NCBI GenBank assembly: GCA_029256185.1
Contig: JAQSYI010000003.1
Coordinates: 202,409-266,408 of the forward strand
DNA from: Paenibacillaceae bacterium
Lineage (GTDB): Bacteria > Bacillota > Bacilli > Paenibacillales > NBRC-103111
Direction of reading: 5' to 3'
DNA length: 64,000 bases
Under the pieces are notes generated by a model. It was given only the letters and a program-made list of their open reading frames with translations, was not told where the DNA came from and made no database searches. A program made the position numbers and the translations under genes. Of this stretch, positions 7,560-24,423 are shown piece after piece. Each line of letters begins with the position of its first letter. The first letter of the stretch is position 1.

Positions 7560-8786
7560 TTAGTCGCTCTGGCGGACGAGTTCAGCCGGAACAGCTTGCT
7601 CCTCCACCCATGAAGGGAAACCGTCCCTAAATTTGCTCCAGTCCGCCGTCATCTCCTTCTCGGTCAACAGGCAGGCGTCCAGTTTTCGGATAATCTCCGC
7701 TTGATCCAGCCCGATCCCGATCAAAACCAGCTCCGTCTCCCGGTCTCCCCACTCAGGGTCCCAAGCAGCCGCCAACTCCGGCTCCTCCTTCAGAATGAGA
7801 CGCTGCTCCTCCCGGGGCATGGATGCTACCCAGTATCCTGCAGGCCCGAATTGAATGGATGGCCCCGCCTGTCCAAGGGATACGGCAATGGCGTTTCTGC
7901 TGGCCAGCCACAGGATGCCCTTGGACCGGACGATTTCCTCCGGCCACGCCTCCATGAATGCGTACAAGCGCTCCGGCTGGAACGGCTTGCGGCGGCGGTA
8001 AACAAAGGAGCTGATCCCGTATTCCTCCGTTTCGGGAGTATGCTCCTCCTTGGCAAGCTCTCTCATCCATCCTGCCGATTGGCTGGCCTCATCAAAGTTG
8101 AACAAGCCGGTGTTGAGAATTTCCTCCGGATTCACCTGCCCCCGTACAGAGCGAATAAGACGGGCACGGGGCTGAAGCTTACGGAGCATGGCCTCCAGCT
8201 CCAGCAAACTCTTCTCCTCCACCATATCGCATTTGTTCAGCACCAGCACATCACAGAACTCAATCTGATCGATCAGCAGATCCACCACATCCCGTACATC
8301 CTCCGCGCCGGCGGCCTGGGAGCGTTCCAGTAGACTGTCGCCGGATGAGAAATCATGCCAGAAGCGGTAGGCGTCCACCACCGTCACCATACAATCCAGT
8401 CTGCAAACCTCAGACAGGGAGATGGAGGTGTCTTCGTCCTCATACGAGAAGGTCTGGGCGATAGGCAGGGGCTCTCCAACGCCAGTGGACTCAATCAGAA
8501 TATAATCGAAGGTTCCTGCCGAAGCCAGCTTCTGAACTTCCTTCAGCAAATCATCACGCAGGGTGCAGCAGATACAGCCGTTGGAGAGCTGAACCAGTTT
8601 CTCCTCTGTGCGGGAGAGAGTAGAACCGGACTGAATCAGAGCAGCGTCAATATTGACCTCGCTCATATCATTGACAATAACCGCCACCCGCAAGCCCTGC
8701 CGGTTATTCAACACATGGTTCAGCAGGGTCGTCTTGCCTGACCCCAGATAACCGCATAGCACCGTGACGGGAATTTTAGTCTTCAA
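7560..8786 (-). CDS. COG0523 / CobW-YciC family G3E GTPase (zinc metallochaperone)
   Basis: Walker A GYLGSGKTT, NDMSEVNIDA, metal-binding GCICCTLR, ESTG, NKCD and C-terminal CobW_C. TTG start with RBS AAGGAGG. Confidence 0.95.
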   Translation of the reverse strand: MKTKIPVTVLCGYLGSGKTTLLNHVLNNRQGLRVAVIVNDMSEVNIDAALIQSGSTLSRTEEKLVQLSNGCICCTLRDDLLKEVQKLASAGTFDYILIESTGVGEPLPIAQTFSYEDEDTSISLSEVCRLDCMVTVVDAYRFWHDFSSGDSLLERSQAAGAEDVRDVVDLLIDQIEFCDVLVLNKCDMVEEKSLLELEAMLRKLQPRARLIRSVRGQVNPEEILNTGLFNFDEASQSAGWMRELAKEEHTPETEEYGISSFVYRRRKPFQPERLYAFMEAWPEEIVRSKGILWLASRNAIAVSLGQAGPSIQFGPAGYWVASMPREEQRLILKEEPELAAAWDPEWGDRETELVLIGIGLDQAEIIRKLDACLLTEKEMTADWSKFRDGFPSWVEEQAVPAELVRQSD

Positions 8787-8825: not shown

Positions 8826-8963
8826 TAAAGCATATTACACATATGCTATGATCTTGTCAATGCCATCCTTATCTGTCTGTTGTTGCACTGCCCTGTTGCA
8901 CTGTCCGGTTGCGATGTCTGTTATTGCACTATCCTATCGTGCTGTCCCGATCAATAGGGAAGC

Positions 8964-9002
8964 AGCAAAAAGAGCCTATTGGCGTCTACGCCGACAGGCC
9001 CT
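8964..9002 (-). terminator. Rho-independent terminator of the GH94/sugar-acid operon
   Basis: Minus strand GGGCCTGTCGGCG-TAGA-CGCCAATAGGCTC-TTTTT. Confidence 0.75.
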
Positions 9003-9037
9003 TCATTTTGGAGTTCGAACAAGATTTTGCAGGAATG

Positions 9038-10033
9038 CTACATCGCCAATATTTGCCGCCAAATATCTTCATTGACAGGAATTCCGTTCGCCATATTATC
9101 CAGCCGGGTTTGATATTCCCGCTCATTGGGATAGAGAATTTCCTTCTCATCGTCCACCCGCACGGACTCCTTCACATTCTGGATTACCTCGTCCACCAGC
9201 CGTCCATTCTCCGGAGTAATTCTCTTCACATCCAGGGCAATAAATACCTGGGATACGGCGTATTCATCCTCTCCCAATTGGCCGACGCGATAGGTGCTGT
9301 TGCCATCGGACAGACAGGCAGCAATCAGATCCAGCAGAATGGAGAAGCCGGAGCCCTTCCAATACCCGATAGGCAGCACACGCCAGGACTTCTCAATTTC
9401 CGCCGGGTCCGTGCTCAAGTTTCCATTGGAGTCAAATCCCCCGGGAACAGGAAGCTGTCTGCCTGCAAGCTTGGCGGCTTCGATAGCTCCGTAAGAGAAT
9501 TGCGCCATGGCGCCATCCACCATCAGGTGTCCATTTTCCTTGGGCACACACATAATCAGAGGGTTATTGCCGATACGGCGGTCCGTAGCCCCCCAAGCCG
9601 GCATGTTGGGCTGGGTATTGGTCCAGCAGATGCCGATGCAGCCCGCATTGGCAGCCTGAAGGCCGTAAGCGCCGCCCCGCATCCAGTGGTTGGTGTTCCG
9701 CAGCGCTACACAGCCGATTCCGAATTGGTGCGCCAGTTCAATCGCCCGGTCCATACAGATTTTGGCGTTGGTATTGCCCATGCCCAGATTGCCGTCCCAT
9801 TTCTCCAATGCACCGAAGGACTGAATGCATTCCGGGTCATTCTCCGGCTTGATATAGGCCTTTTGCAGGTAAGAAATCACCCGGGGAAAACGGTTCACAC
9901 CGTGAGAATATATGCCATCCAGACTATTTTGAGCAAAAATTTCCGCATTTATGCGGGCTTTCTTTTCTTCAAAGCCATACTTGACCAAAACCCGGGTAAA
10001 TTCCTCAATCATTTGCGGGTAGGGGATTCTCAT
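9038..10033 (-). CDS. yiaK: 3-dehydro-L-gulonate 2-dehydrogenase / 2,3-diketo-L-gulonate reductase (Ldh_2 family)
   Basis: YiaK-typical motifs DGIYSHGVNRFPR, ALRNTNHWMRGGAYG, ICWTNT, RRIGNNPL, MAQFSYG and LPIGYWKGSG; 331 aa. Confidence 0.88.
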   Translation of the reverse strand: MRIPYPQMIEEFTRVLVKYGFEEKKARINAEIFAQNSLDGIYSHGVNRFPRVISYLQKAYIKPENDPECIQSFGALEKWDGNLGMGNTNAKICMDRAIELAHQFGIGCVALRNTNHWMRGGAYGLQAANAGCIGICWTNTQPNMPAWGATDRRIGNNPLIMCVPKENGHLMVDGAMAQFSYGAIEAAKLAGRQLPVPGGFDSNGNLSTDPAEIEKSWRVLPIGYWKGSGFSILLDLIAACLSDGNSTYRVGQLGEDEYAVSQVFIALDVKRITPENGRLVDEVIQNVKESVRVDDEKEILYPNEREYQTRLDNMANGIPVNEDIWRQILAM

Positions 10034-10079
10034 TTATATTTGCCTCCTGAGCAACTCTAATGGGTGGTGCGGGCTTTTT

Positions 10080-11093
10080 TTATAAAATCACATTGACTTT
10101 AAGGTAGCCTCCCGGGTTGCGGTCAATATCCATAATCGCAGCGGCTGCCTCCTCCATGGATACAATAGCCGTCAGAATAGCGCGCGCATCGACCTTGCCG
10201 TAATAAATCAGATCGATAGCCTCCTGAAACTCCCCGGCGCTGGTTCTGGCTCCGCGAATATCCACTTCCTTCTTGGTAATCAAGCCTGTAGGAAGCTCGG
10301 TACTCACCTTCGGCCAACCGGTCAAGACAATCCTGCCTGCATTGGATACCAATTCCAGCGTGCTTTGAATAGCAGAATTGGCTCCTGATGCTTCCATCAC
10401 TACCTCCGCCATCCGGCCGCCTGTGATTTCCCGGACTCGCTCTACCGCATTCTCCTTGGCAGGATTAACGGTGTGCACTACGCCGAGCTGTCTGGCTTTC
10501 TCCAGACGCTCATCTACGGGATCAATCATGATCGGCTTGGCCCCGTAATGCAAGGCCCCCATAGCGGCCAGCAGCCCGATGGGTCCCGCTCCGCTGATGG
10601 CAATGTGCTCGCCTTCGGTGAGCCGTCCCCGGTGCAGACCATGCAGGGCAATAGTCAAGGGCTCGGCCATCGGGATGATATCCCAAGGCATGTCGTCCGG
10701 TACCTTGTACAGCATTTCCGCAGGGTGCGTAAAATATTCCACCATGCCGCCGTCCACGTGAACGCCAAGCACCTTCAAGTCCTCACAGCAATTGGTTCTG
10801 CCTATAGAGCAAGGGTAGCAGTGCCCGCAGTACAGATACGGGTCCACGATCACCTTGTCTCCGGGCCTGATCCCTCTGCTGTTGGCAGGAATAGAGATGA
10901 CCTCTCCGGCTATTTCATGGCCGATTACCCGGGGATAGGACACGAGGGGATTGGCTCCCCGGTAAGCGCCGATATCCGAGCCGCAAATTCCGGCGGATTT
11001 TACTTTTATGAGAGCCTCGCCTGCTTGAGGCACCGGCTTGACCATTTCAATGGATTTAATATTCCAGGGTTCCTGCAAGTACATTCCCTTCAT
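10080..11093 (-). CDS. Zinc-binding MDR dehydrogenase, YjjN/L-galactonate- or L-gulonate 5-dehydrogenase-like
   Basis: GICGSD, GHE, structural Zn CGHCYPCSIGRTNCC, GVHVDGGM and Rossmann GAGPIG. Confidence 0.88.
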   Translation of the reverse strand: MKGMYLQEPWNIKSIEMVKPVPQAGEALIKVKSAGICGSDIGAYRGANPLVSYPRVIGHEIAGEVISIPANSRGIRPGDKVIVDPYLYCGHCYPCSIGRTNCCEDLKVLGVHVDGGMVEYFTHPAEMLYKVPDDMPWDIIPMAEPLTIALHGLHRGRLTEGEHIAISGAGPIGLLAAMGALHYGAKPIMIDPVDERLEKARQLGVVHTVNPAKENAVERVREITGGRMAEVVMEASGANSAIQSTLELVSNAGRIVLTGWPKVSTELPTGLITKKEVDIRGARTSAGEFQEAIDLIYYGKVDARAILTAIVSMEEAAAAIMDIDRNPGGYLKVNVIL

Positions 11094-11096
11094 TAT

Positions 11097-11582
11097 TCAA
11101 CTCACCGTCCCATCCAGCGTATTCATATTTATCTTCAGTACGACCTTGATCAACTTGCCGGGCTCGCTCACTGCGCAGCAGGGCCGGTGGATATCCCATG
11201 GGAAAAATACGGCAAAGCTGCCTCCGCCCATCTGAACAAAGCTTTCATTCTCCACGAACCTGTACTGCAGCAGATCCTTCTCTGCCAGGCTGTCCAGCCA
11301 TACGGAGTTCGGGTTTGTGACCGGGGCAAAGCCGATCTGTTCTTCACCTTTTACCGCATAATGAATATCAATAAACCGGGCATGTGTTTCGGGATATATT
11401 TCCTGCACAGGCCGGGTTTGGGTATGAACCACTTGCGCATAAATCTGGTTGCCCTTGATCGGGTATACACCCGGCTGAAGCTCCAATATAGGGTTATCGT
11501 TCAGAAATTCCAGAGCCATCTGTAAGGACAGCGGGTACATTTCCTTCGTCTTCTTATAAGTTTGCAGAGTAGAATAGATCAT
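11097..11582 (-). CDS. YhcH/YjgK/YiaL family protein (sugar-acid anomerase/isomerase-like cupin)
   Basis: ETHARFIDIHY, FAVFFPWDIHRP and IKVVLKI motifs. Confidence 0.9.
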   Translation of the reverse strand: MIYSTLQTYKKTKEMYPLSLQMALEFLNDNPILELQPGVYPIKGNQIYAQVVHTQTRPVQEIYPETHARFIDIHYAVKGEEQIGFAPVTNPNSVWLDSLAEKDLLQYRFVENESFVQMGGGSFAVFFPWDIHRPCCAVSEPGKLIKVVLKINMNTLDGTVS

Positions 11583-11604
11583 CTGAAACGCCCTTTCCGC
11601 GCTA

Positions 11605-13890
11605 TTATCCTAACAAAATGCGGACTTCATAGCTGCTCCCCGCTTCATAAGGCAGCACCTCTCCGTTATAAACCTCTCCATTGACAACAATCTGCTCGAT
11701 GGAGTTGCAGCCGCCCTCACGGGATTGCGTATAGATGATATGATAGTTGGCTCCCCGGAACTCCTTGGTGATTTCGCAGGTTTTCCAGTCAGGCGGCAGG
11801 CAAGGCTCCAGCTTGAGTCCATCCATCTGCGGCTTCAGCCCAAAGACGAACTGGACCAGCGCCTTGACGAACCAGGCTCCGCTGGCCGTTCTCCAGCTTT
11901 GTCCGGGTGTACCGTAGCGGTAACCTGTTTCTTCGGTGAAATAAGAGTTGCACATGGCATAGGGCTCGCCCTTGGTCTCGAACCACTTGTGGTTAAACGG
12001 AAGCACCTTTTCGATTCCCATCTGCACCTTGTCATTGCGCTTCAGCATGGCATCCACGGCAATCTTCCACATGCTGGGATGCAGATAGACACCGCCATTC
12101 TCATGAACACCGGCAGGCTTTTGGGTCATTTCGCCGATATTGGCCACATAATCATGATAGGCCGGCCACGATACCAGCGTACCCAGCTCTGTCTCCAGAT
12201 AGCGGTCAACAGCATCCATGGCTCTTAGCTCCTTATCTCCCTCGCCGATTCCGGAGAGCACGGACCACAGCTGGGGAATCAGGAATACCTTGCCCTCGGT
12301 GCAGCTGAGGGAGCCGATCTTCTCCTCCTGGTCGTTGAACGCATCCAGATAGAACTCGCCGTCCCAGCCGATGCTGTTGACGATGTCCCGCATTTCTGCG
12401 CCATTGCGCTCCGCCAGCCGGACATCCTCCTCCTGGTTCAAGAGCTTGGCCAATTCGATGAACTGGCTGTTGGCTCTGTACCAGGCTATGGACAGCCAGA
12501 CACTGACGCCCTTGCCTTCCAGTCCGGCCTGATTCATCAGGTCGTTCCAGTCGCCGCCCCAGATTTTGACCAGTCCATGCAGCCCCTTGAAATTCCAGAG
12601 GAAATCCACGGCCCGCTTGGCATGCTCATACACCGTTGCGGAGGTGCCGTCGTTGAAGACTACCTCTTCCTTCAGGCGGTCCGCATCCCCCAGCTCCATG
12701 ACCAGACTGTATACGGCCATGGCAATCCATACCGCATTGTCGGCGAAGCTGTTGTCACGGATCAGTCCATCCAGCCAGGTGCGTGGCGCATATCCGGTGC
12801 TGTACTGATAGGTCAACGCCCGCTTCAGACGCTCCCAGCCCAGCTCCGGATTGAAGGTGCCGACGCATTCGCTGTCACTGGTCATGTCCCGGTAGCCGTT
12901 ATGTCTTACCCTGGCCCAGCGGCTGCCCATATTGCTTTCATGCTTCAGCCAGTCGTTGAACAGATGGTTCAGCCCGGTATCCGGCGTTTGAATGCGGACA
13001 CCGTCACTTTGTTTGGCAAGACGTTCGATGGCCTGCGCGAACAGCGCGTCTACCGCTCCCTCCGCAAACAGCTCATTATGCGCCTGCAGAATTTCTTCTT
13101 CGCTGAAGGCAATTCCAGCTGCATAATCAAAGCGGGCTTCCGCTCCGGCAGCCAGCCTCACCCAATTTTCCAGAGCAAAGCAGATTTTCTCCGAATTGCA
13201 ATCGCTGTTCTGGCATCCGCCCTTACTTAATGCCAGTGGCGCCGATTCTTCTCCATATGTGCCGATAAAAGCGTTCTTGCGGGTATCATAGCCGCTGGCG
13301 TCCAGGGAGCCAGTCAGGTAGCCGTACACCTTGCGGGTATCGGCGGAACCGTACTTGCCGAAGGCCTGGCAGACGGCTGCATTGCTTTCTTCTATGAAAT
13401 AGCCAAGGTCGGTATTGTAGCCCTGCGGCCGGTACGGCCCGTCCAGATTCGTTCTGAAATACGGAATCACCTTGAGACTGCAGGGCACTTCCCGCAGATT
13501 GGTAAGGGAGACCGTCCAGATTTCGCAATTCCCCTCTGCAGGGACGAATAACCGGAACTCCGAACGGATGCCCTTGTAAGTCAGGGTTATGACGGTATAT
13601 CCGTTTCCGTGGGAGCATTGATAATCTTCATAGCTGCGCTCCACCGGCAGGGCGTTGGCCAGCCAATATTCCCCGCTTTCCATATCCAGCAGATAGATCT
13701 GGCGGCCTGCAAGCAGCTGCAGCCTCCTGCCCGTGTCATCCTGGGTGAAGCCCTCTCCGTACCCTACCTGCGATGTGAAGGTAATATAAGTATCGTTCCA
13801 CAAATAGTTGTACCAATGCCGTGGCGTGTCGGGAGTTGTAATGCAATATTCCTTCTTGTCCTCCGCAAAAAATCCGTAGTTCTGACTCAT
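11605..13890 (-). CDS. GH94 glycoside phosphorylase (specificity unknown)
   Basis: TPDTPRHWYNYLWN N-terminus, NGYRD, catalytic-region GGDWND, ENGGVYLH and WRTASGAW. 761 aa, no signal peptide. Confidence 0.9.
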   Translation of the reverse strand: MSQNYGFFAEDKKEYCITTPDTPRHWYNYLWNDTYITFTSQVGYGEGFTQDDTGRRLQLLAGRQIYLLDMESGEYWLANALPVERSYEDYQCSHGNGYTVITLTYKGIRSEFRLFVPAEGNCEIWTVSLTNLREVPCSLKVIPYFRTNLDGPYRPQGYNTDLGYFIEESNAAVCQAFGKYGSADTRKVYGYLTGSLDASGYDTRKNAFIGTYGEESAPLALSKGGCQNSDCNSEKICFALENWVRLAAGAEARFDYAAGIAFSEEEILQAHNELFAEGAVDALFAQAIERLAKQSDGVRIQTPDTGLNHLFNDWLKHESNMGSRWARVRHNGYRDMTSDSECVGTFNPELGWERLKRALTYQYSTGYAPRTWLDGLIRDNSFADNAVWIAMAVYSLVMELGDADRLKEEVVFNDGTSATVYEHAKRAVDFLWNFKGLHGLVKIWGGDWNDLMNQAGLEGKGVSVWLSIAWYRANSQFIELAKLLNQEEDVRLAERNGAEMRDIVNSIGWDGEFYLDAFNDQEEKIGSLSCTEGKVFLIPQLWSVLSGIGEGDKELRAMDAVDRYLETELGTLVSWPAYHDYVANIGEMTQKPAGVHENGGVYLHPSMWKIAVDAMLKRNDKVQMGIEKVLPFNHKWFETKGEPYAMCNSYFTEETGYRYGTPGQSWRTASGAWFVKALVQFVFGLKPQMDGLKLEPCLPPDWKTCEITKEFRGANYHIIYTQSREGGCNSIEQIVVNGEVYNGEVLPYEAGSSYEVRILLG

Positions 13891-13901
13891 ATAAGTTCCT
13901 C

Positions 13902-14768
13902 CTAGCCCTTGACTGCTCCAGATGTCAACCCTTCAATAAAGTAACGGTTCAGGAATAAATAAACGATCAGAATCGGCAGAATCGACATCACCGTGCCGGC
14001 CATCATAATATTCCATGCGGCGACGCCTTCCCCCTGGTCCTTCAGAAGCACGACGCCAACGGTCAATGTTCTGAGATCGGGCCGGGACAGAGTAAAGGCC
14101 AGGGGCATCATATAGTTGTTCCAGGCATCCCGGAAGGCCAGTATTCCCGCCGTAGCCAGAATGGGCGTAATAATCGGCATGATGATGGAGGTATAGATCT
14201 TGAAGAAGCTGGCGCCGTCGATCCGCGCGCACTCATCAATTTCCTTCGTAATGCCCTCGCAGTACCCCATAATCAGAATACAGAAGAACGGCTGGGCCGA
14301 GGCTACCTGGGCAATGACCATGCCCCACAGGCTGTTAAGCAATCCTAACTCCTTGCAGATCAGGAAAATGGGAAACAGTGTAACGGCGCCAAGCATAAAC
14401 AGCATGAAGCCAAAGGTGGACAGAATAAATTTTTTGCCCGGAAAATTGGAGCGCGACAAGGTATAGCCCGCCATAGAAGCGGTAATGACCGTTCCGATAA
14501 CCGACATGCCCGCAAAGAAAATACTGTTGAACGTATATCTGGCGAAATTAGCCTGGTTCCAGGCCTTGACATAGTTATCAAATTGGAATACCTCGGGAAA
14601 AATCCGGGTACCGCCCAGCAGAAAATCCTCTGTTGTTTTGAACGAACCGCCAACGGCATAAACAATCGGAAAAGCAATGCCAATCAGCACCAGCGTTAAT
14701 GCTGCATAAATGATGACCAAGTGTGATTTTTTCATTCCCAACTGCATAACGGACCTCCTTAACTGCAA
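13902..14768 (-). CDS. Carbohydrate ABC transporter permease (MalG-type)
   Basis: EAA motif EIDECARIDGAS and six TM segments. Confidence 0.93.
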   Translation of the reverse strand: MQLRRSVMQLGMKKSHLVIIYAALTLVLIGIAFPIVYAVGGSFKTTEDFLLGGTRIFPEVFQFDNYVKAWNQANFARYTFNSIFFAGMSVIGTVITASMAGYTLSRSNFPGKKFILSTFGFMLFMLGAVTLFPIFLICKELGLLNSLWGMVIAQVASAQPFFCILIMGYCEGITKEIDECARIDGASFFKIYTSIIMPIITPILATAGILAFRDAWNNYMMPLAFTLSRPDLRTLTVGVVLLKDQGEGVAAWNIMMAGTVMSILPILIVYLFLNRYFIEGLTSGAVKG

Positions 14769-14772
14769 ACAA

Positions 14773-15714
14773 CTAATAATTCATCTTGCGTGTAAAGAAC
14801 ATATACAAAAGCGTAATGATGCTGACCATCAGCGTGGACACGATACTCACAGCGCTGGCATATCCTTGCTGGGCATTGCCCATGGATTCGAAGAAATAGC
14901 GGAAGATGTACATGGTCATGACTTCCGTTGAGTTGCCGGGACCGCCGTTAGTCAGAGCCTTCACGGAATCGAACAGCTTCAGAGCGTTCAGAATCGAGAG
15001 GGAGGTAATAATCTGGAACATCTTCCCCATCATGGGGATGGTAATCTTGAAGAAGGTCTGAACCGAATTGGCGCCGTCAATCTTGGCGCTCTCGTAGACA
15101 TCAGCCGGAATACTCTGTATGGCCGAGAGAAACAATACCATATAGAAGCCTACGCCGCTCCAGGTGCAGAAGAGGATAATGACCACTTTTGCCATAAAAC
15201 CGCTGCCGAACCATTCAATCGGGCTGTCGATCAGATGAAGGTTCTGCAGAATGTCGTTTACAATCCCATTGTAGGAGGCGAACATGAAGAAGAAAATAAT
15301 CGCCATGATCGCTGTACTGGTAATGTTCGGCACGAATATGACGGCCCTGGAGAAATTGACTCCGGGGAATTTCTTGTTGAGCAGTACCGCCAGAAGAAGC
15401 GCAATCGGAAGTTGGACTAAGGGGATGCCAATTCCCAACTGAAGTGTATTAAGCACCGTTGTCCAGAATGAACCATCCTGAAACACACGTATATAATTGT
15501 CAAGACCGTTGAAGGTTGCTGGAGTGAAGCCGTTATATTCGGTGAAGCTGTAATAAAGAACATATAGAATCGGGAAAATCCCGAACACAACCACCATAAT
15601 GATGGTTGCCGCCATCATCGCGTATTGTGCCCGATGGTCTGCTATGCGCTTGAGCAAGGGCTTTTGCTTCTGCCTGACGGCAGCTGCATGGGGAACAGTA
15701 GGTATCATATGCAT
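14773..15714 (-). CDS. Carbohydrate ABC transporter permease (MalF-type)
   Basis: EAA motif DVYESAKIDGAN, GLDNY and six TM segments. Confidence 0.93.
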   Translation of the reverse strand: MHMIPTVPHAAAVRQKQKPLLKRIADHRAQYAMMAATIIMVVVFGIFPILYVLYYSFTEYNGFTPATFNGLDNYIRVFQDGSFWTTVLNTLQLGIGIPLVQLPIALLLAVLLNKKFPGVNFSRAVIFVPNITSTAIMAIIFFFMFASYNGIVNDILQNLHLIDSPIEWFGSGFMAKVVIILFCTWSGVGFYMVLFLSAIQSIPADVYESAKIDGANSVQTFFKITIPMMGKMFQIITSLSILNALKLFDSVKALTNGGPGNSTEVMTMYIFRYFFESMGNAQQGYASAVSIVSTLMVSIITLLYMFFTRKMNY

Positions 15715-15785
15715 AACACGCCTTCCGGTAAGCTTATTGAGATGAGGCAGAATGGATTGTCTTCTGCCTCATCCGTTTCTCTTGT

Positions 15786-17171
15786 TTATTGCGCCGGCTT
15801 TATGCTCTCCGGGCTGATGCTGCCGTTCTGCACGGCCTTCTCCAATGCTGCCGTATAGCGCTTGTTCAAATCCGCCAGAGCATTGTCCACGCTGGTGGAG
15901 AAATCCTTCTGAGTGTCGGCCACCGCAAACAGGTTGGTTAATACCTTGTTCCGGTCGTCGCCCTCCAGACTGATGAACTTGTGAGGCTCAAATACAGGGA
16001 TCTGCAGATCCGAGGTTTCCATGGAATACTTCAGACCTTGCAGGTTATACTTGGAAGTGGGCAAATTATCCGGATTGTTGGCGGTCAAATCTGTGCGGGG
16101 CACAGGCATAAACTGGTTGGCCAGCTCTTGATTGCCGAGCCACGCCGTATAAAACTTTTTGGCGGCTTCGGAGTTTTTGGAATTGGTGATCACCCAGTTC
16201 ACGCCGCCCTCTGCCCAGTATTTCCCGCTCTCGCCGTCGGCGAATACAGGAATCGGAGCGGCATCCCAGTTGGCTTTGGCCGACATTTGGGTAGCATAAC
16301 TGCCCATCATCCAGTTTCCGTCGATGTACATGCCGATTTTTCCCTGGGCAAAATTGGCCCGCAAAGGATCAATGCCCAATGTCTGGTAGCCGGGGAACAA
16401 GGAACCGTCCTTCTTCAAGTCCAGATAGTAATTGAAAAGACGCTTGTTGGATTCAAATTCGTACTTGCCGGTGCTGCTGTTGAATCCGTACCTGTCGCCA
16501 ACGCCCATGGCAATATTGATGGGGTCTATGATCCGTTCCCAAATTTGTGCTACCCCAAGCGGAAGACCGAAGCCGTAATATTCCCCTTTGCCGGCTTCTG
16601 TGATTTTGCGGGCTGCCTCCCTCATCTCTTCCAGAGTTGCGGGCGGCTTCTCCGGATCAAGTCCTGCTGCTTGGAACAGGTCCTTGTTATAAAGCAAGCG
16701 GTAGGCGCTGATGCGGACCGGAACAGAGTACAACTCGTCCTTGTAGTAAAATTCCTCGGGCTTCAAGGTGTCCGGATGAAGCTTGGCCTTCAATTCGTCG
16801 GTGACCGCATTGCCCAGGGGAATAATATTTCCCTGCTTGGCCAGACTATTGACGGTAATACCTCCGCTTGCCTCCATGATATCAGGCGGATTGCCGGCGG
16901 CAATGGCCATTTGCACAACACTGGCGTAATTCTCCCCGTAATACTCATAGGATACCTTGACCTCGTCTTGCTCCTTGTTAAACTTGTCGATAATGGCAGT
17001 GATGCCTTCGTCGGGACCGCTGGCGCGGATCCATACCTTAATATCGGTAGGGTCCTTCTTGGCTGCACCGCTTTGGGCCGATTCATCATCGCTTGCGCAT
17101 CCGACTGCGGAAGTCAGAAGTGTTGCCGCCAGCACCAGTGCACCCAGCTTGGCGAGTGGTTTTTTCCTCAT
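15786..17171 (-). CDS. Carbohydrate ABC solute-binding lipoprotein
   Basis: Lipobox AVGC after a basic/hydrophobic signal, with SBP family 1 motifs (NPPDI, LYNKDLF, PPATLEE). Confidence 0.93.
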   Translation of the reverse strand: MRKKPLAKLGALVLAATLLTSAVGCASDDESAQSGAAKKDPTDIKVWIRASGPDEGITAIIDKFNKEQDEVKVSYEYYGENYASVVQMAIAAGNPPDIMEASGGITVNSLAKQGNIIPLGNAVTDELKAKLHPDTLKPEEFYYKDELYSVPVRISAYRLLYNKDLFQAAGLDPEKPPATLEEMREAARKITEAGKGEYYGFGLPLGVAQIWERIIDPINIAMGVGDRYGFNSSTGKYEFESNKRLFNYYLDLKKDGSLFPGYQTLGIDPLRANFAQGKIGMYIDGNWMMGSYATQMSAKANWDAAPIPVFADGESGKYWAEGGVNWVITNSKNSEAAKKFYTAWLGNQELANQFMPVPRTDLTANNPDNLPTSKYNLQGLKYSMETSDLQIPVFEPHKFISLEGDDRNKVLTNLFAVADTQKDFSTSVDNALADLNKRYTAALEKAVQNGSISPESIKPAQ

Positions 17172-17295
17172 GCTTTCTTCCCCCTTGCTTCATTTTCGCT
17201 TCAATGTCATTATAGCCTTCCCCGCTTTTGCCGTGTGTCGGGATTGTTATGAAAAAGGACGGATTCGTTAGCCCGGATGCTCCGCTTAAAGTCTG

Positions 17296-18921
17296 CTATT
17301 GGGAACGGCTTTGCTTTTTACGGAAATCGAAGGGCATCTTGCCGGTATTTTTCTCGAATACCTTACTGAAGTGTTGACTGCTATTGTACCCCACTTTCTC
17401 GGCAATGATTTGGATTTTCAGATCGGTGTTCAGCAGCAACCTCCGCGCTTCCTCCATGCGCACCTCCGTCAGGTAATCCGTGAAGCCCTGCCCGGTCACA
17501 TTCTTGAACACTTGGCTTAAATAGGACGGGTTCAGATGGAAGTGCTCCGCTACCATGGATCTCGTCGCATCGGCAAATTGCTGGTTCACGTACTTCTTGA
17601 TCCGGTCCACCAGTTGCTCCTGATGGGTGACAGGCCGGTTCTTGATGCTTTCAATCCACTCATGGATCATTTTCTGCATCCAATTCTGCAATTCCTTATA
17701 AGTCTTGAGGCTCTCCATATATTCCACCTGATAGGTCCGTTCCCGCAATGCAGCGCTCCCTTCGCCAACCGATTCCAGTATCCGCTGGCGCAGGAGGATC
17801 AGGATATACTGGCATTCCGCATAAACCTGCTTCTGCGAGAGATGAAGCTCATGGATCATGCAGACAAACAAACGCTCCAGGGTAAGTGCTGCCTTCTGCG
17901 CTTCTGCCGCCTCCACTTGAAGCACCAGGTCCTCCATAAGCGCATTTTGAACGGCCGGCCTGTATTCATTGCGGGTGTTTGACGCCTCCAGCATATCGAT
18001 ATCGAAGGTATGGTTTTTTCCATGAATGAATTTCATCTCCAGCGCCTGTTGCGCCTCCCGGAAGGACTTGGGCAGCTGGTTAGCTCCCCGGTAGACCCCT
18101 CCTATGCCTACGGACAGGGTAATGCCCCATAGCATAAGTGCCGTCTCCTTCATTTCATTGACGGTGTCGTACAGCTCCTTCTTCAGATTATCCGAATTTT
18201 TTTCACAAGCAATCAAGACGGACTTCTCATCATTGTAGCTGAAGACAATCCCCATATCCGCCTTCATGGTCAGCTCCTCCAGGACATTATCCACGGCATA
18301 TTTCAGCACGAATTTGTCATTCTGGTTCGTGAAGCCACGGGCATTGAAATCATCGATTTCAAATACGGCAACGCAGATGCGGGCCGGAACCTGGCCGAAT
18401 TCGAATAAATTCCAGATGCTCTCGATATCCGACAAGGGCAGATAGTCTTTATTTACCAGCGAGCATAAATACTTGTCTTTTGCCGCACCGCGCATGCTAT
18501 AGAGGCTGATGCTGGCTTTTTGGCCTTCCTCCAGACTCTTCTTGCGCTTTAACAACTGCTCCTTAATGGCCAGAAGCTTCTGTATCAGCTCCTCCTTGCC
18601 CACCGGCTTCAACAGATAACAGTTGGCCCCCTTCTCAATCGCCTGCTGGGCGTAATCGAAATCGCTGTAGCCGCTTAGAATGACCACAGCCGCCAAGGGA
18701 AGCAGCCCTTTGACCCGGTCAATCATGTCCAGACCGTTCAGTACAGGCATGCGGATATCCGTTATGACGATATCAGGCTTGATCCGCTCCATCACTTCCA
18801 GAGCCTCTTCCCCATCGTAGGCTTCACCGGCCACTTCCATCCCCAGGCTTTCCCACGGGATCATAATTTTCAGGCCCTCAATAATGACATCCTCGTCATC
18901 CACCAGCACTACCTTTATCAT
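17296..18921 (-). CDS. YesN-family response regulator (REC + AraC HTH)
   Basis: VVLVDDE, ITDIRMP, YLLKP, and C-terminal HLNPSYLSQVFK...VGY..SQHFSKVF. Confidence 0.95.
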   Translation of the reverse strand: MIKVVLVDDEDVIIEGLKIMIPWESLGMEVAGEAYDGEEALEVMERIKPDIVITDIRMPVLNGLDMIDRVKGLLPLAAVVILSGYSDFDYAQQAIEKGANCYLLKPVGKEELIQKLLAIKEQLLKRKKSLEEGQKASISLYSMRGAAKDKYLCSLVNKDYLPLSDIESIWNLFEFGQVPARICVAVFEIDDFNARGFTNQNDKFVLKYAVDNVLEELTMKADMGIVFSYNDEKSVLIACEKNSDNLKKELYDTVNEMKETALMLWGITLSVGIGGVYRGANQLPKSFREAQQALEMKFIHGKNHTFDIDMLEASNTRNEYRPAVQNALMEDLVLQVEAAEAQKAALTLERLFVCMIHELHLSQKQVYAECQYILILLRQRILESVGEGSAALRERTYQVEYMESLKTYKELQNWMQKMIHEWIESIKNRPVTHQEQLVDRIKKYVNQQFADATRSMVAEHFHLNPSYLSQVFKNVTGQGFTDYLTEVRMEEARRLLLNTDLKIQIIAEKVGYNSSQHFSKVFEKNTGKMPFDFRKKQSRSQ

Positions 18922-18936
18922 CGTCCATCCTCCGCT

Positions 18937-20748
18937 CTATATGGCATCCAGTGATTTGTACAGTGGGAAGCATAGTGTCACCGTGGTTCCCTCGTTTCGG
19001 ATGCTGTCGATCATCAAGCCGTATTCCTCTCCGTAATATAGCTTCAGGCGGCTGTTAATATTCCTCAGCCCGATGTTGGAGCCTGTCTCCTCCGGCTCCG
19101 TCCGCAGGCCTTCATACACCAATTGCAGCTGCTCCTTCTCCATGCCGATGCCGTTATCCTTCACCATCAGCCACACCTTGTCATCTTGAATGCGGGAATC
19201 CACCGTTATCCGCCGGTCATTCTTCTTGACCTCGAGACCATGATAAACGGCATTCTCGACGATGGGTTGAAGAATGAATTTGGGCACAATCATGCTCCCC
19301 AGGTCCTCCGGCAAATCCACAGTCAGCTCAAACTTGTTGCGGAAGCGGATATTCTGCAAGGTAATGTAGCTGTTGATGTAAGCCAGTTCATGCCGCAGCG
19401 GGACAAATTCCTGACGGATATTGGTGGTGCTGCGCAGCATGAAACTCAATTGCTCAATCATAAAGGCAGTGTCATCATCCTTGTTGATCAGAGCCTTCAT
19501 GCGAATACCGTCCAGCGTATTGTATAGAAAGTGAGGGTTGATTTGGCTTTGCAGCACCATCATCTCGGCCTCCTTCTTTTTGACCTGCATTTCCGTATTC
19601 TGGGCCATCAGCACCTTCATCTTTCTCACCATATGATTGAGTCCGTCGGCGATAACGGCGAATTCATCTCTAGTGTTCACATGAATCCGCAAATTCAAAT
19701 TGCCGTCCTCCAATCTCTTGATGCCTTTCAAGATGATCCGGATGGACTTGGTAACGGCAAAAGAGTTCAGTACCAGCAGCAGCAAGGCGGCCAAGCAGCA
19801 GATAACAGCCAGGGTGTTGGTAAAGCTGTGCATTTTCTTCAGGTCCTTGAACAGCACCTCCTCCGGCACAACCAAGGCCGCATACATCCCTGTATAGGAG
19901 GAGCGGACATAGTTGACGATTTTTGAGGCCTGTCCTGCGCCCAATTCCATAGTCCCGGTTTTGGCATTGGCATCTCCGCCGAGGTGGCCGCCAATCTCCC
20001 GGTAGTCCTCGGGAGTAAGCGAGGTGCCTGCGCTGTATGCATGACGTTGTTCGCTGTCAAACAGAAGAATGCTGTTCTCCCCCAGATCATTCTTGTTGCA
20101 AATCTCATCCAGAACGCTGCTTCGCAGATCAATTTTGATCACGCCCAGGACCTGGGGATTGGAATAGGTTCTGATTTTCCGGACTCCCGAAAATACATGA
20201 TAGGTACTGAAATTATTGCGGTGGGGCGCAATAGCCAGGAACATGCTGTTCTGCTTCATAAATGCCTGATACCAGGACTCGGATGCCATATTGTACCCTT
20301 CCGGGACATAATTGTTGGGTCCGCTGGTGAAAGCAAAGCCATTTAGATTGCCGATGATAATCCGGTCAATATCCTTCCGCACGCTGAGAATGCTGTTCGC
20401 CGCTTCACTGATGAGGTTCAACTTTTGCTCATAGCCGCTGTCACCTGGGCTTTGGATTGTGGCAAGCGCATTTGCCAGCTCCTCATTGAGCAGCAGGGTC
20501 TGGGTTAGACGGTCAATCTCATCGAACGTATCATCGATGGCGGAGCTTACGTTATGAATCAGCATCTCCGAATACATCAGAGAATTCTTCTTGATCACCA
20601 TCGATGAATAAGAAAATCCAACCCACTGCAGCACCAGCACAACGGCAATGACAATCAGCGTGTAGGTGGCAATGAGCTTGATCCTTAGATTAATCGCTTT
20701 CTTTTTGTTCAATACCTTGGTTTTCTGCACCTTCATTACCTCCACCAC
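18937..20748 (-). CDS. YesM-family sensor histidine kinase
   Basis: LQSQINPHFLYNTLD, ILQPIVENAVYHG, DNGIGM and IGLRNINSRL. Start is uncertain (alternative ATG at ~20736). Confidence 0.95.
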   Translation of the reverse strand: MVEVMKVQKTKVLNKKKAINLRIKLIATYTLIVIAVVLVLQWVGFSYSSMVIKKNSLMYSEMLIHNVSSAIDDTFDEIDRLTQTLLLNEELANALATIQSPGDSGYEQKLNLISEAANSILSVRKDIDRIIIGNLNGFAFTSGPNNYVPEGYNMASESWYQAFMKQNSMFLAIAPHRNNFSTYHVFSGVRKIRTYSNPQVLGVIKIDLRSSVLDEICNKNDLGENSILLFDSEQRHAYSAGTSLTPEDYREIGGHLGGDANAKTGTMELGAGQASKIVNYVRSSYTGMYAALVVPEEVLFKDLKKMHSFTNTLAVICCLAALLLLVLNSFAVTKSIRIILKGIKRLEDGNLNLRIHVNTRDEFAVIADGLNHMVRKMKVLMAQNTEMQVKKKEAEMMVLQSQINPHFLYNTLDGIRMKALINKDDDTAFMIEQLSFMLRSTTNIRQEFVPLRHELAYINSYITLQNIRFRNKFELTVDLPEDLGSMIVPKFILQPIVENAVYHGLEVKKNDRRITVDSRIQDDKVWLMVKDNGIGMEKEQLQLVYEGLRTEPEETGSNIGLRNINSRLKLYYGEEYGLMIDSIRNEGTTVTLCFPLYKSLDAI

Positions 20749-20892: not shown

Positions 20893-21711
20893 TTGGATAA
20901 AAATGAAGGACAGGTGATTATTGTGCCAATGGATGTCCATAACGTTCGTGAAAAGCGGGCCATCTTCCTGGCCGCAGTGTGCAGTCAGACATATGAGCAA
21001 TATGCCAACCAGGACGGCACCTTTATGGTTCCCTCCCATTACTCGCTCCGTCATACGATCCTGGCCCAATCCATCGGAAATAAATGGGAACGCTTCGGTT
21101 TTATTATCGAGTCCCCCAGAGAGATCGTCATTGCCTTCCGTGGAACCAGCTCCAGAAACGATTGGATCTCAGACGCCATGGCCGCCCAAATAAAGTTCAA
21201 ATATGTAAGAGGGACATGTCTTGTCCACCGCGGCTTTGCCAATATCTACGCTTCCGCAAGAAAAGGCATTCATTCCGCGCTGGCCAAACTGCCGCCGGAT
21301 AAGAGCCTGACCGTTACCGGACACAGCCTGGGAGCCGCGCTGGCTACCTTATGCGCCCTGGACCTTGCCGTGAACACCCCATCCCGTTCCCCCAAGCTGT
21401 TCACCTACGGTTCCCCGCGGGTGGGCGATCCGGCTTTTGCCAGAGTCTTCTCCCAAAATGTAAGCTCCAGTTACCGGTTCGCCAACCCCTTCGACCTTGT
21501 CACGCACGCTCCGCCTACGGTCTTAAAGCTCCCTGTCCGGGATAAAACCTACTACTACAGCCATGTCAAAAGCATGGAATCCGTTCCCTTCCAGAAAGGC
21601 TCCATCGAGCTTAACCACATCATCAGCAGCTATTTCGCCAAACTTTCCCGGTCCGAGCCGGATTATTCGAGAAAGATGTGCTCCGCCAATCCGGGCTTCT
21701 GTCCGGACTAA
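20893..21711 (+). CDS. Lipase class 3 family protein
   Basis: IVIAFRGT, VHRGF, nucleophile elbow TGHSLG, YGSPRVGD, DLVTHAP and terminal H. The true start may be a downstream GTG/ATG near 20923-20929. Confidence 0.88.
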   Translation: MDKNEGQVIIVPMDVHNVREKRAIFLAAVCSQTYEQYANQDGTFMVPSHYSLRHTILAQSIGNKWERFGFIIESPREIVIAFRGTSSRNDWISDAMAAQIKFKYVRGTCLVHRGFANIYASARKGIHSALAKLPPDKSLTVTGHSLGAALATLCALDLAVNTPSRSPKLFTYGSPRVGDPAFARVFSQNVSSSYRFANPFDLVTHAPPTVLKLPVRDKTYYYSHVKSMESVPFQKGSIELNHIISSYFAKLSRSEPDYSRKMCSANPGFCPD

Positions 21712-21966: not shown

Positions 21967-24423
21967 CTAGCCCACACGGCGGAATACGCCGTCCGTCTCT
22001 TCAATAATGACCGTATGTGTTCCCGCAGCCAACGATTGGCCGTACAAATGCCCTGTGCATCCTTCGGGAACGTGCAGTTCTAGTACGTACCGCCCCGCTT
22101 CAGTCTGCTTCAATGCCATGCGGATCTCTCCATACAGCGTCGGCAGCGAAGCTGCGATATCTGTCAGTCCGCATGGTGCCGGAGCCAACTCGAAGTGCTG
22201 GAAGCCGGGAGCCAACGGCTGCAAGCCGAAAATCCCCTCGAATACAAAGAGGATGGGCGAAGCTCCCCAGGCATGGCTGGCGCTGGAATAAGCGACTGTA
22301 CCGTCTGTCTCTTGGTGGAACACGTTCCATCGCTCCCACGTGGTGGTGGCTCCTACATCCAGCATGGCCCCGTACCGGTTCCTGATCAGCTCAAGGGCCC
22401 GGCGGGTCCGGCCGGTTCGGGACAGTGCTCTCCCGATCACCAGCATGAAATAAGGGCTGCCTCTGACAACCGGCGCTCCAGTCTGGCCGCTGAATACGCG
22501 ATGGAAGATGCGGGCAGCCCGCCCGTCTTCCGGGGCGTGAAGGTGAAGCAGGGCCAACGCGTTGGCAGGCTCGCTGATCGTGCCGCTAAGAGCGCCGCCA
22601 ACCAGACAATCCGCATACGCCCCCTCCTCCCCGCTCCACAGCCAGGTTTCCACAGCGGCCTTCAATTTGGCGCATTTGGCCGAAAACAACTGCTCGGCCT
22701 CACTCTCCTTCATCCACGCGGCAAACTCGCCTATCGTCTGCAGCCCTTCCAGATACTGCAGATTTAACGCCGTCACAATCCCGCCACGTTCCACGTCCAG
22801 GGTAGTGCCTCCCGCCCCGTCTCCCCAGTCGATAAACGGCCAGTACGGCACATTCTCCAGCAGACCGTGCTCATTCTCATAGGCTGTGAACCAACGGATG
22901 GCAAGCAATAGCTGCGGCCACCATTCATGCACCAGCCCGGTGTCCCCGGTATAGCGGACATAATCGCGGAAGGAGCAGATCCATGCCAGGCAAAAGGAAG
23001 GAATGGGCGGATAATTGTGATGGCCGTCAGGATATCTGGCCTTGGTCATGCCTGTCCAATCCTGGGATTGCCCCACTTGTCTGAGCAGCTTGCGGTGCAG
23101 ACGGCTGTCGCCGGAATAATGGTAGTTAATCACCGCCTGCCAACGGCCGTCCCCCATCCACTGCTGCTGCTCCCTGCTGGACGAATCGAGAAATCCGTCT
23201 TGCATGCACAGCCGCAGGGTGCGCGCGGAGATATCCCAGATTCCCGCCAACCGCCTGTCACTGCACTGAAGCGTTGCGGTATGCGCAAGCGGATAACGCC
23301 GCGTCCGCAGCCCCACCCGGTGAATGATAACCGGCCCCCGGTGATTGCGCACCCGAAGCTGCGCATACCGGAATGCCCGCCAGGCGAATGCAGGCTCCAG
23401 CACATTGCGCCCCTCGGCAAGAATGTAGCGTTCGACAGGGCGGTTGTTGTTCATATTCAGCAGCGCCTGCCCCTCCCACAATTCCTCGGCATAAATCACA
23501 TCCAGAATATCCCCTTTACTGCCTGTCACTTCAAGCTGCAAGTATCCCGCAGCCATCTCCGCGAAATTGAAGGTGATAACAGAAGCTTGTCCCGGCAAGG
23601 AGGTCGGTACCGTGTATTCGCCTGTTAATGTCTGACAGCAGGGGGAAGCTTCCTGCAGAATGGGCTGCTCCGCATGAATCTGATGATGAAGGCGCTCCGG
23701 AGGCTGCGGCATCTCTGTCAACACTCCCGTATTGACGATGCTCCCCGCTTGGATTTCCTCTTCCTCCAACAGCGGAATATCCCGCACTACCCAATTCCAG
23801 AACGGAGACAAGCGGCTTCCCCGCCCCTTGGCTTGCGCCCAACCCGTCTCCTCGTAATCCGCAGCCGCCCAATTTACCGGTATCAATCCCATATCCACAA
23901 TCTCTATGGGGCCCTGACACCCGTTAATTCTCGGCGCGTTCCTGAGCCATGCGTCGGCGGCAAGGCACTTCCAGCTGGAATCGCTGTGTACATAGAACGG
24001 CTCGCCTCCAGGCAAGACCATCGCCGCCTCCACGGCCAAGGCCGGAATCCGGCTGATGGACTGGCCTGTGCCGTAGCCGTAATACAAGGCCAGTACGGCA
24101 ATGACGTTATTCCCCCGTCTCATATGCGCCGTTATGTCCCATTCATCCACATATTGCTCCCGCGGGTCGCTGCGGCATGGCCCCCTGCCCGCGTAAGTGC
24201 CGTTCACAAACAGCTTGTAGCGGGAATCGGCGAACAGCAGCACCCGGGCATGGTCCGGTTGTGCATCCAGCTCGAAGGTTTTGCGGAAATAACAGAATGC
24301 GTTAACCGGCTGCTCGTAATGGTTTTCCACCTGGTCCGGATGCCAGATCAGCTGGGTTTGCTCCCGCCAGGTCATACCCCGGCTTTGCTCCCGTTTAAAT
24401 CTGGGACTGTCGGCTAGATTCAC
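21967..24423 (-). CDS. GH78-type alpha-L-rhamnosidase-like glycosidase (copy A)
   Basis: FRKTF, ADSRYKLFVNG, AWRAFRY, acid region DSSSREQQQWMGD, base region TTTWERW, SHAW and LAPGF. No signal peptide. Confidence 0.85.
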   Translation of the reverse strand: MNLADSPRFKREQSRGMTWREQTQLIWHPDQVENHYEQPVNAFCYFRKTFELDAQPDHARVLLFADSRYKLFVNGTYAGRGPCRSDPREQYVDEWDITAHMRRGNNVIAVLALYYGYGTGQSISRIPALAVEAAMVLPGGEPFYVHSDSSWKCLAADAWLRNAPRINGCQGPIEIVDMGLIPVNWAAADYEETGWAQAKGRGSRLSPFWNWVVRDIPLLEEEEIQAGSIVNTGVLTEMPQPPERLHHQIHAEQPILQEASPCCQTLTGEYTVPTSLPGQASVITFNFAEMAAGYLQLEVTGSKGDILDVIYAEELWEGQALLNMNNNRPVERYILAEGRNVLEPAFAWRAFRYAQLRVRNHRGPVIIHRVGLRTRRYPLAHTATLQCSDRRLAGIWDISARTLRLCMQDGFLDSSSREQQQWMGDGRWQAVINYHYSGDSRLHRKLLRQVGQSQDWTGMTKARYPDGHHNYPPIPSFCLAWICSFRDYVRYTGDTGLVHEWWPQLLLAIRWFTAYENEHGLLENVPYWPFIDWGDGAGGTTLDVERGGIVTALNLQYLEGLQTIGEFAAWMKESEAEQLFSAKCAKLKAAVETWLWSGEEGAYADCLVGGALSGTISEPANALALLHLHAPEDGRAARIFHRVFSGQTGAPVVRGSPYFMLVIGRALSRTGRTRRALELIRNRYGAMLDVGATTTWERWNVFHQETDGTVAYSSASHAWGASPILFVFEGIFGLQPLAPGFQHFELAPAPCGLTDIAASLPTLYGEIRMALKQTEAGRYVLELHVPEGCTGHLYGQSLAAGTHTVIIEETDGVFRRVG

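Follow-up and report, generated by a model that had tools for sequence, protein, structure and literature searches.

Gene content and organization of the locus

The stretch of DNA considered here (the window) comprises 64,000 nucleotides of contig JAQSYI010000003.1 from a Paenibacillaceae bacterium (assembly GCA_029256185.1, positions 202,409 to 266,408), and the subject of this analysis is a group of nine minus-strand genes at positions 9038-20748 of the window, which includes a glycoside phosphorylase of family GH94 and a YiaK-type dehydrogenase. The contig, designated C37, belongs to an assembly of 8.57 Mb in 91 contigs that is 94% complete; other C-numbers below denote contigs of this same assembly, and L-numbers denote comparison loci. 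Since the only sequencing run containing the locus is a soil metagenome, the host genome is a metagenome-assembled genome.

All nine open reading frames (ORFs) were confirmed by an ORF check and domain searches. In the direction of transcription, they encode a YesM-type sensor histidine kinase (18937-20748; dCache_1, HAMP, His_kinase and HATPase_c domains), a YesN-type response regulator (17296-18921; Response_reg and an AraC-type helix-turn-helix), a lipoprotein substrate-binding protein (SBP) of a CUT1-type ATP-binding cassette (ABC) importer (15786-17171; SBP_bac_1, lipobox AVGC), a MalF/UgpA-like permease (14773-15714) and a MalG/UgpE-like permease (13902-14768), both assigned by domain match, a cytoplasmic GH94 glycoside phosphorylase of 761 amino acids (11605-13890; PF06165, E 7.6e-40, and PF17167, E 4.1e-77), a DUF386 (YhcH/YiaL) protein (11097-11582; PF04074, E 2e-35), a Zn-dependent dehydrogenase of the polyol/aldonate type (Zn-DH; 10080-11093; domain match with Zn and NAD motifs) and a YiaK-type dehydrogenase of the Ldh_2 family (9038-10033). 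No ATPase gene for the importer is present within the operon. Two plus-strand ORFs, at 8909-10060 (383 amino acids) and 10473-11525 (350 amino acids), were judged to be shadow ORFs, as they lie antisense to the strongly matched YiaK and Zn-DH genes.

An earlier note on this DNA had described these genes as one minus-strand unit ending in a terminator. The genes, their coordinates and their domains stand, and so does the terminator: the RNA of positions 8955-9010 (minus strand) folds into a 15-pair hairpin (-22.5 kcal/mol, z = -3.5) whose 3′ end enters UUUUU, so that an intrinsic terminator-like element at 8964-9004 closes the operon after YiaK, although a consensus terminator scan made no call there. 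The single unit is the part that calls for a refinement. Gaps between the genes from SBP to YiaK are 3-71 nucleotides long, and a region of 124 nucleotides (17172-17295) separates the response regulator from the SBP gene. Because this region contains a promoter-like TATAAT (17210-17215; read straight from the sequence, a consensus promoter scan having given no flag at that place), the two regulatory genes probably form a separate or additional transcription unit.

The GH94 protein and its subfamily

The GH94 protein consists of an N-terminal beta-supersandwich and an (alpha/alpha)6 catalytic domain and aligns over its full length with the structures of chitobiose phosphorylase (ChBP) and cellobiose phosphorylase (CBP). 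Its best match in PDB is ChBP (1V7V, 323 bits), followed at some distance by cellobiose phosphorylases (about 255-278 bits) and the GH94 domain of cyclic beta-1,2-glucan synthase (223 bits), all at approximately 30% identity, and cellobionic acid phosphorylase (CBAP; 4ZLE, 217 bits, roughly 26-30% identity) ranks only 15th. With this level of identity and a different +1 loop, the protein is predicted to be none of the standard cellobiose, laminaribiose or chitobiose phosphorylases, in agreement with the proposal of the earlier note. More than 600 relatives of approximately 760 amino acids share 47-65% identity with it; they occur in Clostridia, a few Paenibacillus, Kiritimatiellota, Planctomycetota and Hydrogenedentota, and carry only generic names in their sources ("GH36-type glycosyl hydrolase domain-containing protein", "hypothetical protein" or "cellobiose phosphorylase"). 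Judged by sequence, the GH94 of the window is a member of this distinct, uncharacterised subfamily.

Residue conservation was scored in an alignment of 76 relatives, which shows little or no variation at the general acid D450 (in the motif GDWND) or at R334-D335, W448, Y602, H604 and T668. These residues correspond to the catalytic, phosphate-binding and glucose-binding (subsite -1) residues listed for the GH94 enzyme PBOR_28850, namely Asp456, Arg342, Asp343, Trp454, Tyr609, His611 and Thr676 (PMC8741936). Because of this match, the protein should be a true phosphorylase that yields alpha-glucose-1-phosphate.

A second member of the subfamily is encoded in the same genome (C71:87888-90170, equivalent to L108 8837-11176; 59% identity). 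It stands alone, with a divergent AraC regulator ahead of it and a GH130 phosphorylase and an ABC importer a few kb upstream, which rules out that it shares the operon context of the window.

The acceptor-site loop and cellobionic acid phosphorylase

The loop that lines the +1 site was compared with that of the CBAP SdCBAP in an alignment for which the PDB query was C82, a CBAP-like paralogue encoded elsewhere in the genome. The SdCBAP loop (G608-R609-V-T-Q-K613-F-P-G-S-A-E-N-G-S-V-Y-N-H626) and the loop of the window protein (G586-E587-M-T-Q-K591-P-A-G-V-H596-E-N-G-G-V-Y-L-H604) align without gaps; therefore, K591 is equivalent to K613 and E587 to R609. At these two positions, in the order R609 and K613, Clostridium thermocellum CBP has Glu and Tyr and ChBP has Phe and Val. 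K591 is found in 69 of the 76 relatives, with Arg in two more, and position 587 is mostly Ser. According to work attributed to Nam and colleagues in 2015, R609, K613 and Q190 of SdCBAP reportedly hold the carboxylate of gluconate or glucuronate. The window GH94 thus has one of the two basic residues at this acid-binding position of CBAP but is no CBAP: the Arg-Asn pair of CBAP at the -1 site (Asn350) is R334-D335 here, and the CBAP structure that ranks 15th for this protein is the first match of the C82 paralogue (358 bits).

Three paralogues in the genome do carry the CBAP signature, with an Arg-Asn pair at the -1 site and an R...K motif within the +1 loop (C82:266627-268918, C66:146686-148986 and C8:26579-28879). 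Three putative cellobionic-acid-type phosphorylases in one genome are unusual.

The earlier note had expected an uncommon or new GH94 specificity. An uncharacterised subfamily is indeed what the comparison points to; however, acidic acceptors as such are already on record for GH94, in the form of CBAP, which appears in the tables of PMC8950772, and the expectation has to be toned down accordingly. The window protein departs from CBAP in two of its defining sequence features and belongs to a different cluster.

Conserved linkage with YiaK and Zn-DH genes

In a maximum-likelihood tree of the subfamily, the window GH94 falls into a clade (clade A, SH-aLRT 99) with the sequences of L105 and L107 and four sequences from Lachnospiraceae (Lacrimispora and Hungatella). 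Orthologues of the importer genes accompany clade A at 62-78% identity, with those of the SBP lying upstream of the GH94 genes (62-70%) and those of the MalF-like and MalG-like permeases at 69-78% and 68-75%, respectively. The linkage extends to the redox genes. L105/L106 (43% GC), which is found in NCBI GCA_023410375.1 and in an ENA assembly, has the order histidine kinase, response regulator, SBP, permease, permease, GH94 (P0002), Zn-DH and Ldh_2, and its eight products are 51, 46, 70, 74, 75, 65, 70 and 64% identical to those of the window. This core recurs on the metagenome contig L147, where a GH94 gene of 57% identity is directly followed by a YiaK gene (63%) that the contig end truncates. 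GH94 followed by Zn-DH and/or YiaK is thus present in three independent loci (window, L105 and L147), and because the combination recurs in this way, it is no chance juxtaposition.

A phyletic comparison gave a similar picture. Among 70 reference genomes, all four that have a clade-A GH94 also encode a YiaK homologue (E<=1e-60), and none of the 66 genomes with members of other clades does, a split whose naive probability is approximately 1e-6 (1/C(70,4)) if kinship is ignored; the comparison is confounded, since the four positive genomes include three that are closely related to each other and the negative ones include many small gut genomes. The pattern clearly points in the same direction as synteny, with true support much weaker than that figure. 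In two of the positive genomes, Lacrimispora G136 and Hungatella G138, YiaK (57% identity) adjoins a Zn-DH that is 70% identical to that of the window.

Surroundings of other clade-A loci are also related to sugar acids. In L107, the GH94 gene is followed by a second SBP, GH28, an AP_endonuc_2 protein and a GntR/FCD regulator, and preceded by a cyclase, GntR/FCD, LacI and DUF386 genes. Convergent to the clade-A operon of L203, and directly bordering it, lies a minus-strand cluster (10648-17243) that encodes a TRAP transporter and a GntR/FCD regulator together with a cupin, a beta-keto acid cleavage enzyme (BKACE) and a four-carbon acid-sugar kinase family protein (SBD_N and NBD_C domains).

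The pair of YiaK and Zn-DH genes itself is a mobile cassette that also occurs with transporters of its own. The nearest relatives of YiaK have 68-75% identity, with paired Zn-DH genes of 71-75% identity in L132 and L133, and altogether the Zn-DH is 70-75% identical to the YiaK-partner genes of L105, L132, L133 and L231. One setting of the cassette contains RpiR, an RraA-like gene, an SBP, two permeases, YiaK and Zn-DH; another contains LacI, a class-V aminotransferase, a branched-chain-type ABC importer, a shikimate-dehydrogenase-like gene, YiaK, Zn-DH and an AlaDH-like gene. A transaminase adjoining YiaK fits a 2-oxo-acid substrate, in keeping with the general chemistry of Ldh_2 enzymes. The latter setting is a recurrent pathway (L134-L137, L231 and L233) that also has a NicX-like gene after LacI and may act on an amino sugar acid or an opine-like compound. 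Hungatella and Lacrimispora also have a more distant trio of YiaK (43%), DUF386 and RspB-like Zn-DH, beside which lie genes for GntR/FCD, an ApbA-type reductase and a DHDPS-type aldolase. The YiaK homologues of other Paenibacillaceae occur in loci with ABC importers and two-component systems together with GH2, enolase-superfamily acid-sugar dehydratases and a Udh-like epimerase-family dehydrogenase.

Such mobility invites the explanation that the GH94 acts on a neutral beta-glucoside, either new or known (for example, glucosyl-galactose), and that Zn-DH and YiaK, with or without DUF386, form an unrelated module for a separate compound. The cassette is indeed found, together with transporters of its own, in no fewer than three unrelated contexts and in inverted gene order between loci, and most relatives of the GH94 lack it. 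The SBP belongs to the oligosaccharide type, and the PDB entry that it matches best is 4R9F (deposited as "MBP1", 87 bits; presumably a mannobiose-binding protein), which provides no informative solved relative. However, in the three independent clade-A loci YiaK follows GH94 or Zn-DH within 50-120 nucleotides and no transporter of its own is present. Together with the restriction of YiaK to clade-A genomes in the phyletic comparison, the Lys591 that stands where neutral-acceptor enzymes have Tyr or Val and the sugar-acid regulators and genes around other clade-A loci, this makes a neutral glucoside unlikely.

Acid-sugar neighbours across the subfamily

Beyond clade A, the genomic contexts of the subfamily are diverse. 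One clade is characterized by clusters of the type AraC|GH115-UxaC-SDR-UxuA-RraA-like-GH94, which are conserved in L015, L019, L049, L052 and L063 and are also found in L013, L024, L029 and L151. In these clusters, an RraA-like protein of 304 amino acids occupies the place where a 2-keto-3-deoxygluconate (KDG) kinase or aldolase would be expected, and two copies at 75% identity are present in the genome of the window (C40 and C63). Other members of the subfamily follow a right-handed beta-helix protein of approximately 790 amino acids or belong to the arrangement histidine kinase, response regulator, SBP, permease, permease, GH88, DUF2264, GH94 and HAD. In a large clade from small gut Clostridia, GH94 follows a gene for a G5-M23 peptidase; this peptidase is directly upstream in 17 loci (L025, L027, L028, L035, L037, L038, L042, L046-L048, L054, L056, L057, L059-L061 and L067), usually with an ABC ATPase gene nearby, which suggests a link to the turnover of cell-wall or teichuronic-type glycans. 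Taken together, such neighbourhoods speak for acidic glycans as the origin of the substrates and leave glucuronate alive as a rival aglycone.

Under this rival, the GH94 would be a phosphorylase for beta-glucosyl-D-glucuronate or a glucuronide, an activity equal to that of the P. borealis enzyme described below or to the side activity of CBAP, the released glucuronate would be channelled through UxaC, UxuB and UxuA, and the DUF386 protein, Zn-DH and YiaK would have a bypass or by-product role. In its favour, other clades adjoin GH115-UxaC-SDR-UxuA-RraA clusters, GH88 and DUF2264 or beta-helix enzymes, and the conserved Lys at the position of CBAP K613 would fit a C6 carboxylate as well; CBAP has been crystallized with 3-O-beta-glucosyl-glucuronic acid (PMC8741936). 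UxuA and UxuB (C1:201220-203809) and UxaC (C83) are all encoded in the genome, and the Lachnospiraceae clade-A loci L003, L004, L005 and L032 need no extra acid genes in the operon, as would be expected for a common metabolite. On the other hand, the uronate-linked clades sit in the other half of the tree, and it is clade A that specifically co-occurs with YiaK, an enzyme with no known role on glucuronate. A Paenibacillus precedent has also to be considered, because PBOR_13355 of P. borealis is said to be a 3-O-beta-D-glucopyranosyl beta-D-glucuronide phosphorylase with a neighbouring beta-glucuronidase (work attributed to Isono and colleagues in 2022), and the name of this activity is present in CAZy-derived lists. 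No beta-glucuronidase adjoins any GH94 gene of the window's own genome, and the subfamily is found in only 2 of 136 Paenibacillaceae genomes, which makes an orthologue in P. borealis unlikely, provided that this species is in the set. We consider glucuronate a doubtful aglycone, but one that deserves to be kept in mind.

The YiaK, Zn-DH and DUF386 proteins

The window YiaK passes the equivalog cut-off of NF009750 (468.6 vs. 316 bits), whose annotation is 3-dehydro-L-gulonate 2-dehydrogenase of the Ldh_2 family (2-oxo-acid reductases), matches PDB 1NXU/1S20 over residues 1-330 with 342 bits, is 49% identical to Escherichia coli YiaK and is present as a single copy in the genome. These features, along with its pairing with a YiaL-family gene as in E. 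coli yiaK-yiaL, are what an ascorbate-derived glucoside or glucosyl-L-gulonate would have in its favour, with YiaK converting 2,3-diketo-L-gulonate to 3-keto-L-gulonate. However, tblastn searches with E. coli queries found no homologue of SgbH or SgbU (the counterparts of UlaD and UlaE) anywhere in the 94%-complete assembly; the only match of SgbE was an AraD-like gene on another contig, and LyxK matched only generic FGGY kinases on other contigs. Because no SgbH or SgbU homologue is present, 3-keto-L-gulonate would have no onward route and would be a dead end. Moreover, it is not obvious what a polyol-type Zn-DH would do with a 3-keto acid, and beta-glucosyl ascorbate is rare in nature. Judging from these searches, the 3-keto-L-gulonate route of E. 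coli is absent from the assembly and the window YiaK cannot work as it does in E. coli, and a glucoside of this kind is very improbable. The absence of a 3-keto-gulonate kinase or decarboxylase from the window, which the earlier note had recorded correctly, thus extends to the whole assembly; its choice of L-gulonate or an ascorbate-derived acid has found no backing, as nothing identifies the acid as either, and its E. coli-like role for YiaK is contradicted by the missing follow-up enzymes.

The Zn-DH has the catalytic residues C37, H59 and E60, the structural Cys cluster, the GAGPIG motif and the Asp for NAD. Its best PDB match is RspB (4ILK, 220 bits), and it is 37% identical to RspB, 37% to LgoD and 30% to IdnD. 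The earlier note had linked it to YjjN-like enzymes, a link that finds no support here; the protein reaches only 250.7 bits against PRK10083, the model of the RspB/YjjN type with a cut-off of 376. At such distances, the substrates of RspB, LgoD and IdnD cannot, as far as sequence can tell, be transferred to it. Members of this polyol-dehydrogenase branch oxidize the secondary alcohol that adjoins the terminal CH2OH, such as L-gulonate to D-fructuronate, L-galactonate to D-tagaturonate, and L-idonate to 5-keto-D-gluconate.

The DUF386 protein is a full-length match to its family (TIGR00022, 122.7 vs. 45.5 bits), is 38% identical to E. coli YiaL and remains below the equivalog cut-off for N-acetylneuraminic acid (Neu5Ac) anomerases (102 vs. 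160). The cyclic 2-keto acid Neu5Ac is provided in its open-chain form by the anomerase YhcH, a characterized DUF386 protein (PMC8141875). By analogy, the window protein may anomerize a cyclic keto-sugar acid or open its ring.

Origin and genomic surroundings

YiaK is present in 21 of the 136 Paenibacillaceae genomes and in none of seven genomes of the same genus. As this distribution and the rarity of the GH94 subfamily in the family make the locus look foreign, the operon was probably acquired horizontally. The flanking genes are unrelated to it (a CobW/COG0523 GTPase at 7560-8786 on the minus strand and a class-3 lipase at 20893-21711 on the plus strand). The remainder of the window carries two paralogous GH78 alpha-L-rhamnosidases of 818 amino acids (21967-24423 and 40210-42666, minus strand), GH106, a beta-helix/golvesin-domain protein and more YesM/YesN pairs, and the region is a dense array of glycan-utilization loci.

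Proposed pathway and its significance

That the aglycone is an acid of some kind, all acid variants taken together, is likely. At this level of class, the earlier proposal of an imported beta-glucosylated sugar acid is consistent with Lys591, synteny at three loci, the phyletic pattern and the acid-sugar neighbours; at the level of a particular acid, it has no such backing. The more specific view, that the genes form a two-component-regulated operon for the uptake and catabolism of a beta-D-glucoside with a sugar acid as its aglycone, the identity of which we infer, strikes us as evenly balanced between right and wrong. From the directly established gene content, catalytic residues, conserved synteny and co-occurrence of clade A with YiaK, we infer not only the acid aglycone but also that it is of the 2-keto or L-hexonate type, which of the two redox steps comes first and what the final product is.

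In the proposed scheme, the lipoprotein SBP and the two permeases would import the disaccharide, with a shared ATPase encoded elsewhere, and the GH94 would phosphorolyse the beta-glucosyl sugar acid, with Lys591 standing in for the carboxylate-binding lysine of CBAP. The acid might then be isomerized by redox steps, in place of the phosphorylation and decarboxylation of the E. coli style: the DUF386 protein would open or anomerize a cyclic keto-acid, YiaK would reduce the 2-oxo group beside the carboxylate, and the polyol-type Zn-DH would oxidize the penultimate carbon (C5). The product would be a ketose of the hexuronate pathway (D-fructuronate, or else 5-keto-D-gluconate or D-tagaturonate); UxuB and UxuA, whose genes lie in another part of the genome, could take it onward. 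This sequence of ring opening, reduction and oxidation, each step of which is conjectural, would be the most economical chemistry because SgbH and SgbU are absent, because of the chemistry of the Zn-DH branch and the role of YhcH, and because UxuA, UxuB and UxaC are present. In its fullest form, the proposal is that the clade-A GH94 is a phosphorylase for the beta-glucoside of a 2-keto- or L-hexonic acid and that DUF386, YiaK and Zn-DH provide a hitherto undescribed, kinase-free route to D-fructuronate, which we put forward tentatively.

Besides the confounding of the phyletic comparison, several points weigh against an acidic, and particularly a 2-keto- or L-hexonic, aglycone. CBAP has a basic pair, Arg609 and Lys613, of which Glu587 replaces the former here, and one Lys alone is no proof of an acidic acceptor. 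In 80 genome loci that encode relatives with 47-59% identity to the GH94, no YiaK, Zn-DH or DUF386 gene lies within 10 kb. Even within clade A, the four Lachnospiraceae loci have a PFK-family gene after GH94, not YiaK, and L203 has nothing there. No biochemical data were found for any member of the subfamily of approximately 760 amino acids. CUT1 importers usually carry neutral oligosaccharides, and we know of no natural beta-glucosyl 2-keto- or L-hexonate.

GH94 phosphorylases are wanted as catalysts for the production of rare glycosides from glucose-1-phosphate, and each new acceptor class in this family has so far been a publishable discovery. To our knowledge, 2-keto- or L-hexonic acids as acceptors (e.g., in glucosyl-2-keto-L-gulonate or glucosyl-L-gulonate) have not been described for any glycoside phosphorylase, and no description of a GH94 partnered with a YiaK/Zn-DH cassette, with or without DUF386, was found in the literature searched. 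What the locus offers is a lead to an uncharacterised subfamily, represented hundreds of times in bacteria from soil and gut and marked by a diagnostic Lys in the +1 loop, in which the partner genes of clade A would narrow the acceptor to a sugar acid, and to a recurrent YiaK/Zn-DH(/DUF386) cassette that appears incompatible with the textbook YiaK pathway of E. coli. If the proposal is true, YiaK/YiaL-type genes would gain a physiological function that is independent of the ascorbate scheme of E. coli; if the acid is ordinary glucuronate or gluconate, the finding shrinks to a new member of a known activity.

Comparison with known systems

Four known systems resemble parts of this operon. The yiaK-S (2,3-diketo-L-gulonate) operon of E. 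coli shares with it an orthologue-level YiaK that adjoins a YiaL-family gene. However, the window lacks the TRAP transporter and the LyxK, SgbH, SgbU and SgbE partners, pairs YiaK with a Zn-dehydrogenase and would admit its substrate through a glycoside phosphorylase. The L-aldonate 5-dehydrogenases RspB, LgoD (YjjN) and IdnD belong to the same Zn-dependent polyol-dehydrogenase subfamily as the window Zn-DH, which differs from them by the low identities given above and a score under the NCBIfam cut-off. PBOR_13355 is reportedly likewise a Paenibacillus GH94 with an acidic acceptor, thought to work with neighbouring acid-sugar enzymes, but its neighbour is said to be a beta-glucuronidase, of which there is none beside the GH94 genes here. 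A parallel in enzyme logic is CBAP (SdCBAP, EC 2.4.1.321, PDB 4ZLE-4ZLI), an inverting GH94 phosphorylase with the same domains, catalytic Asp, phosphate site and glucose -1 site and with a Lys at the Lys613 position within a common TQK motif, and the predicted outcome, glucose-1-phosphate and a free sugar acid, would be the same. In contrast to CBAP, the window protein has Glu for Arg609 and Asp for Asn350, and its operon partners are YiaK, Zn-DH and DUF386 genes, with no gluconate genes.

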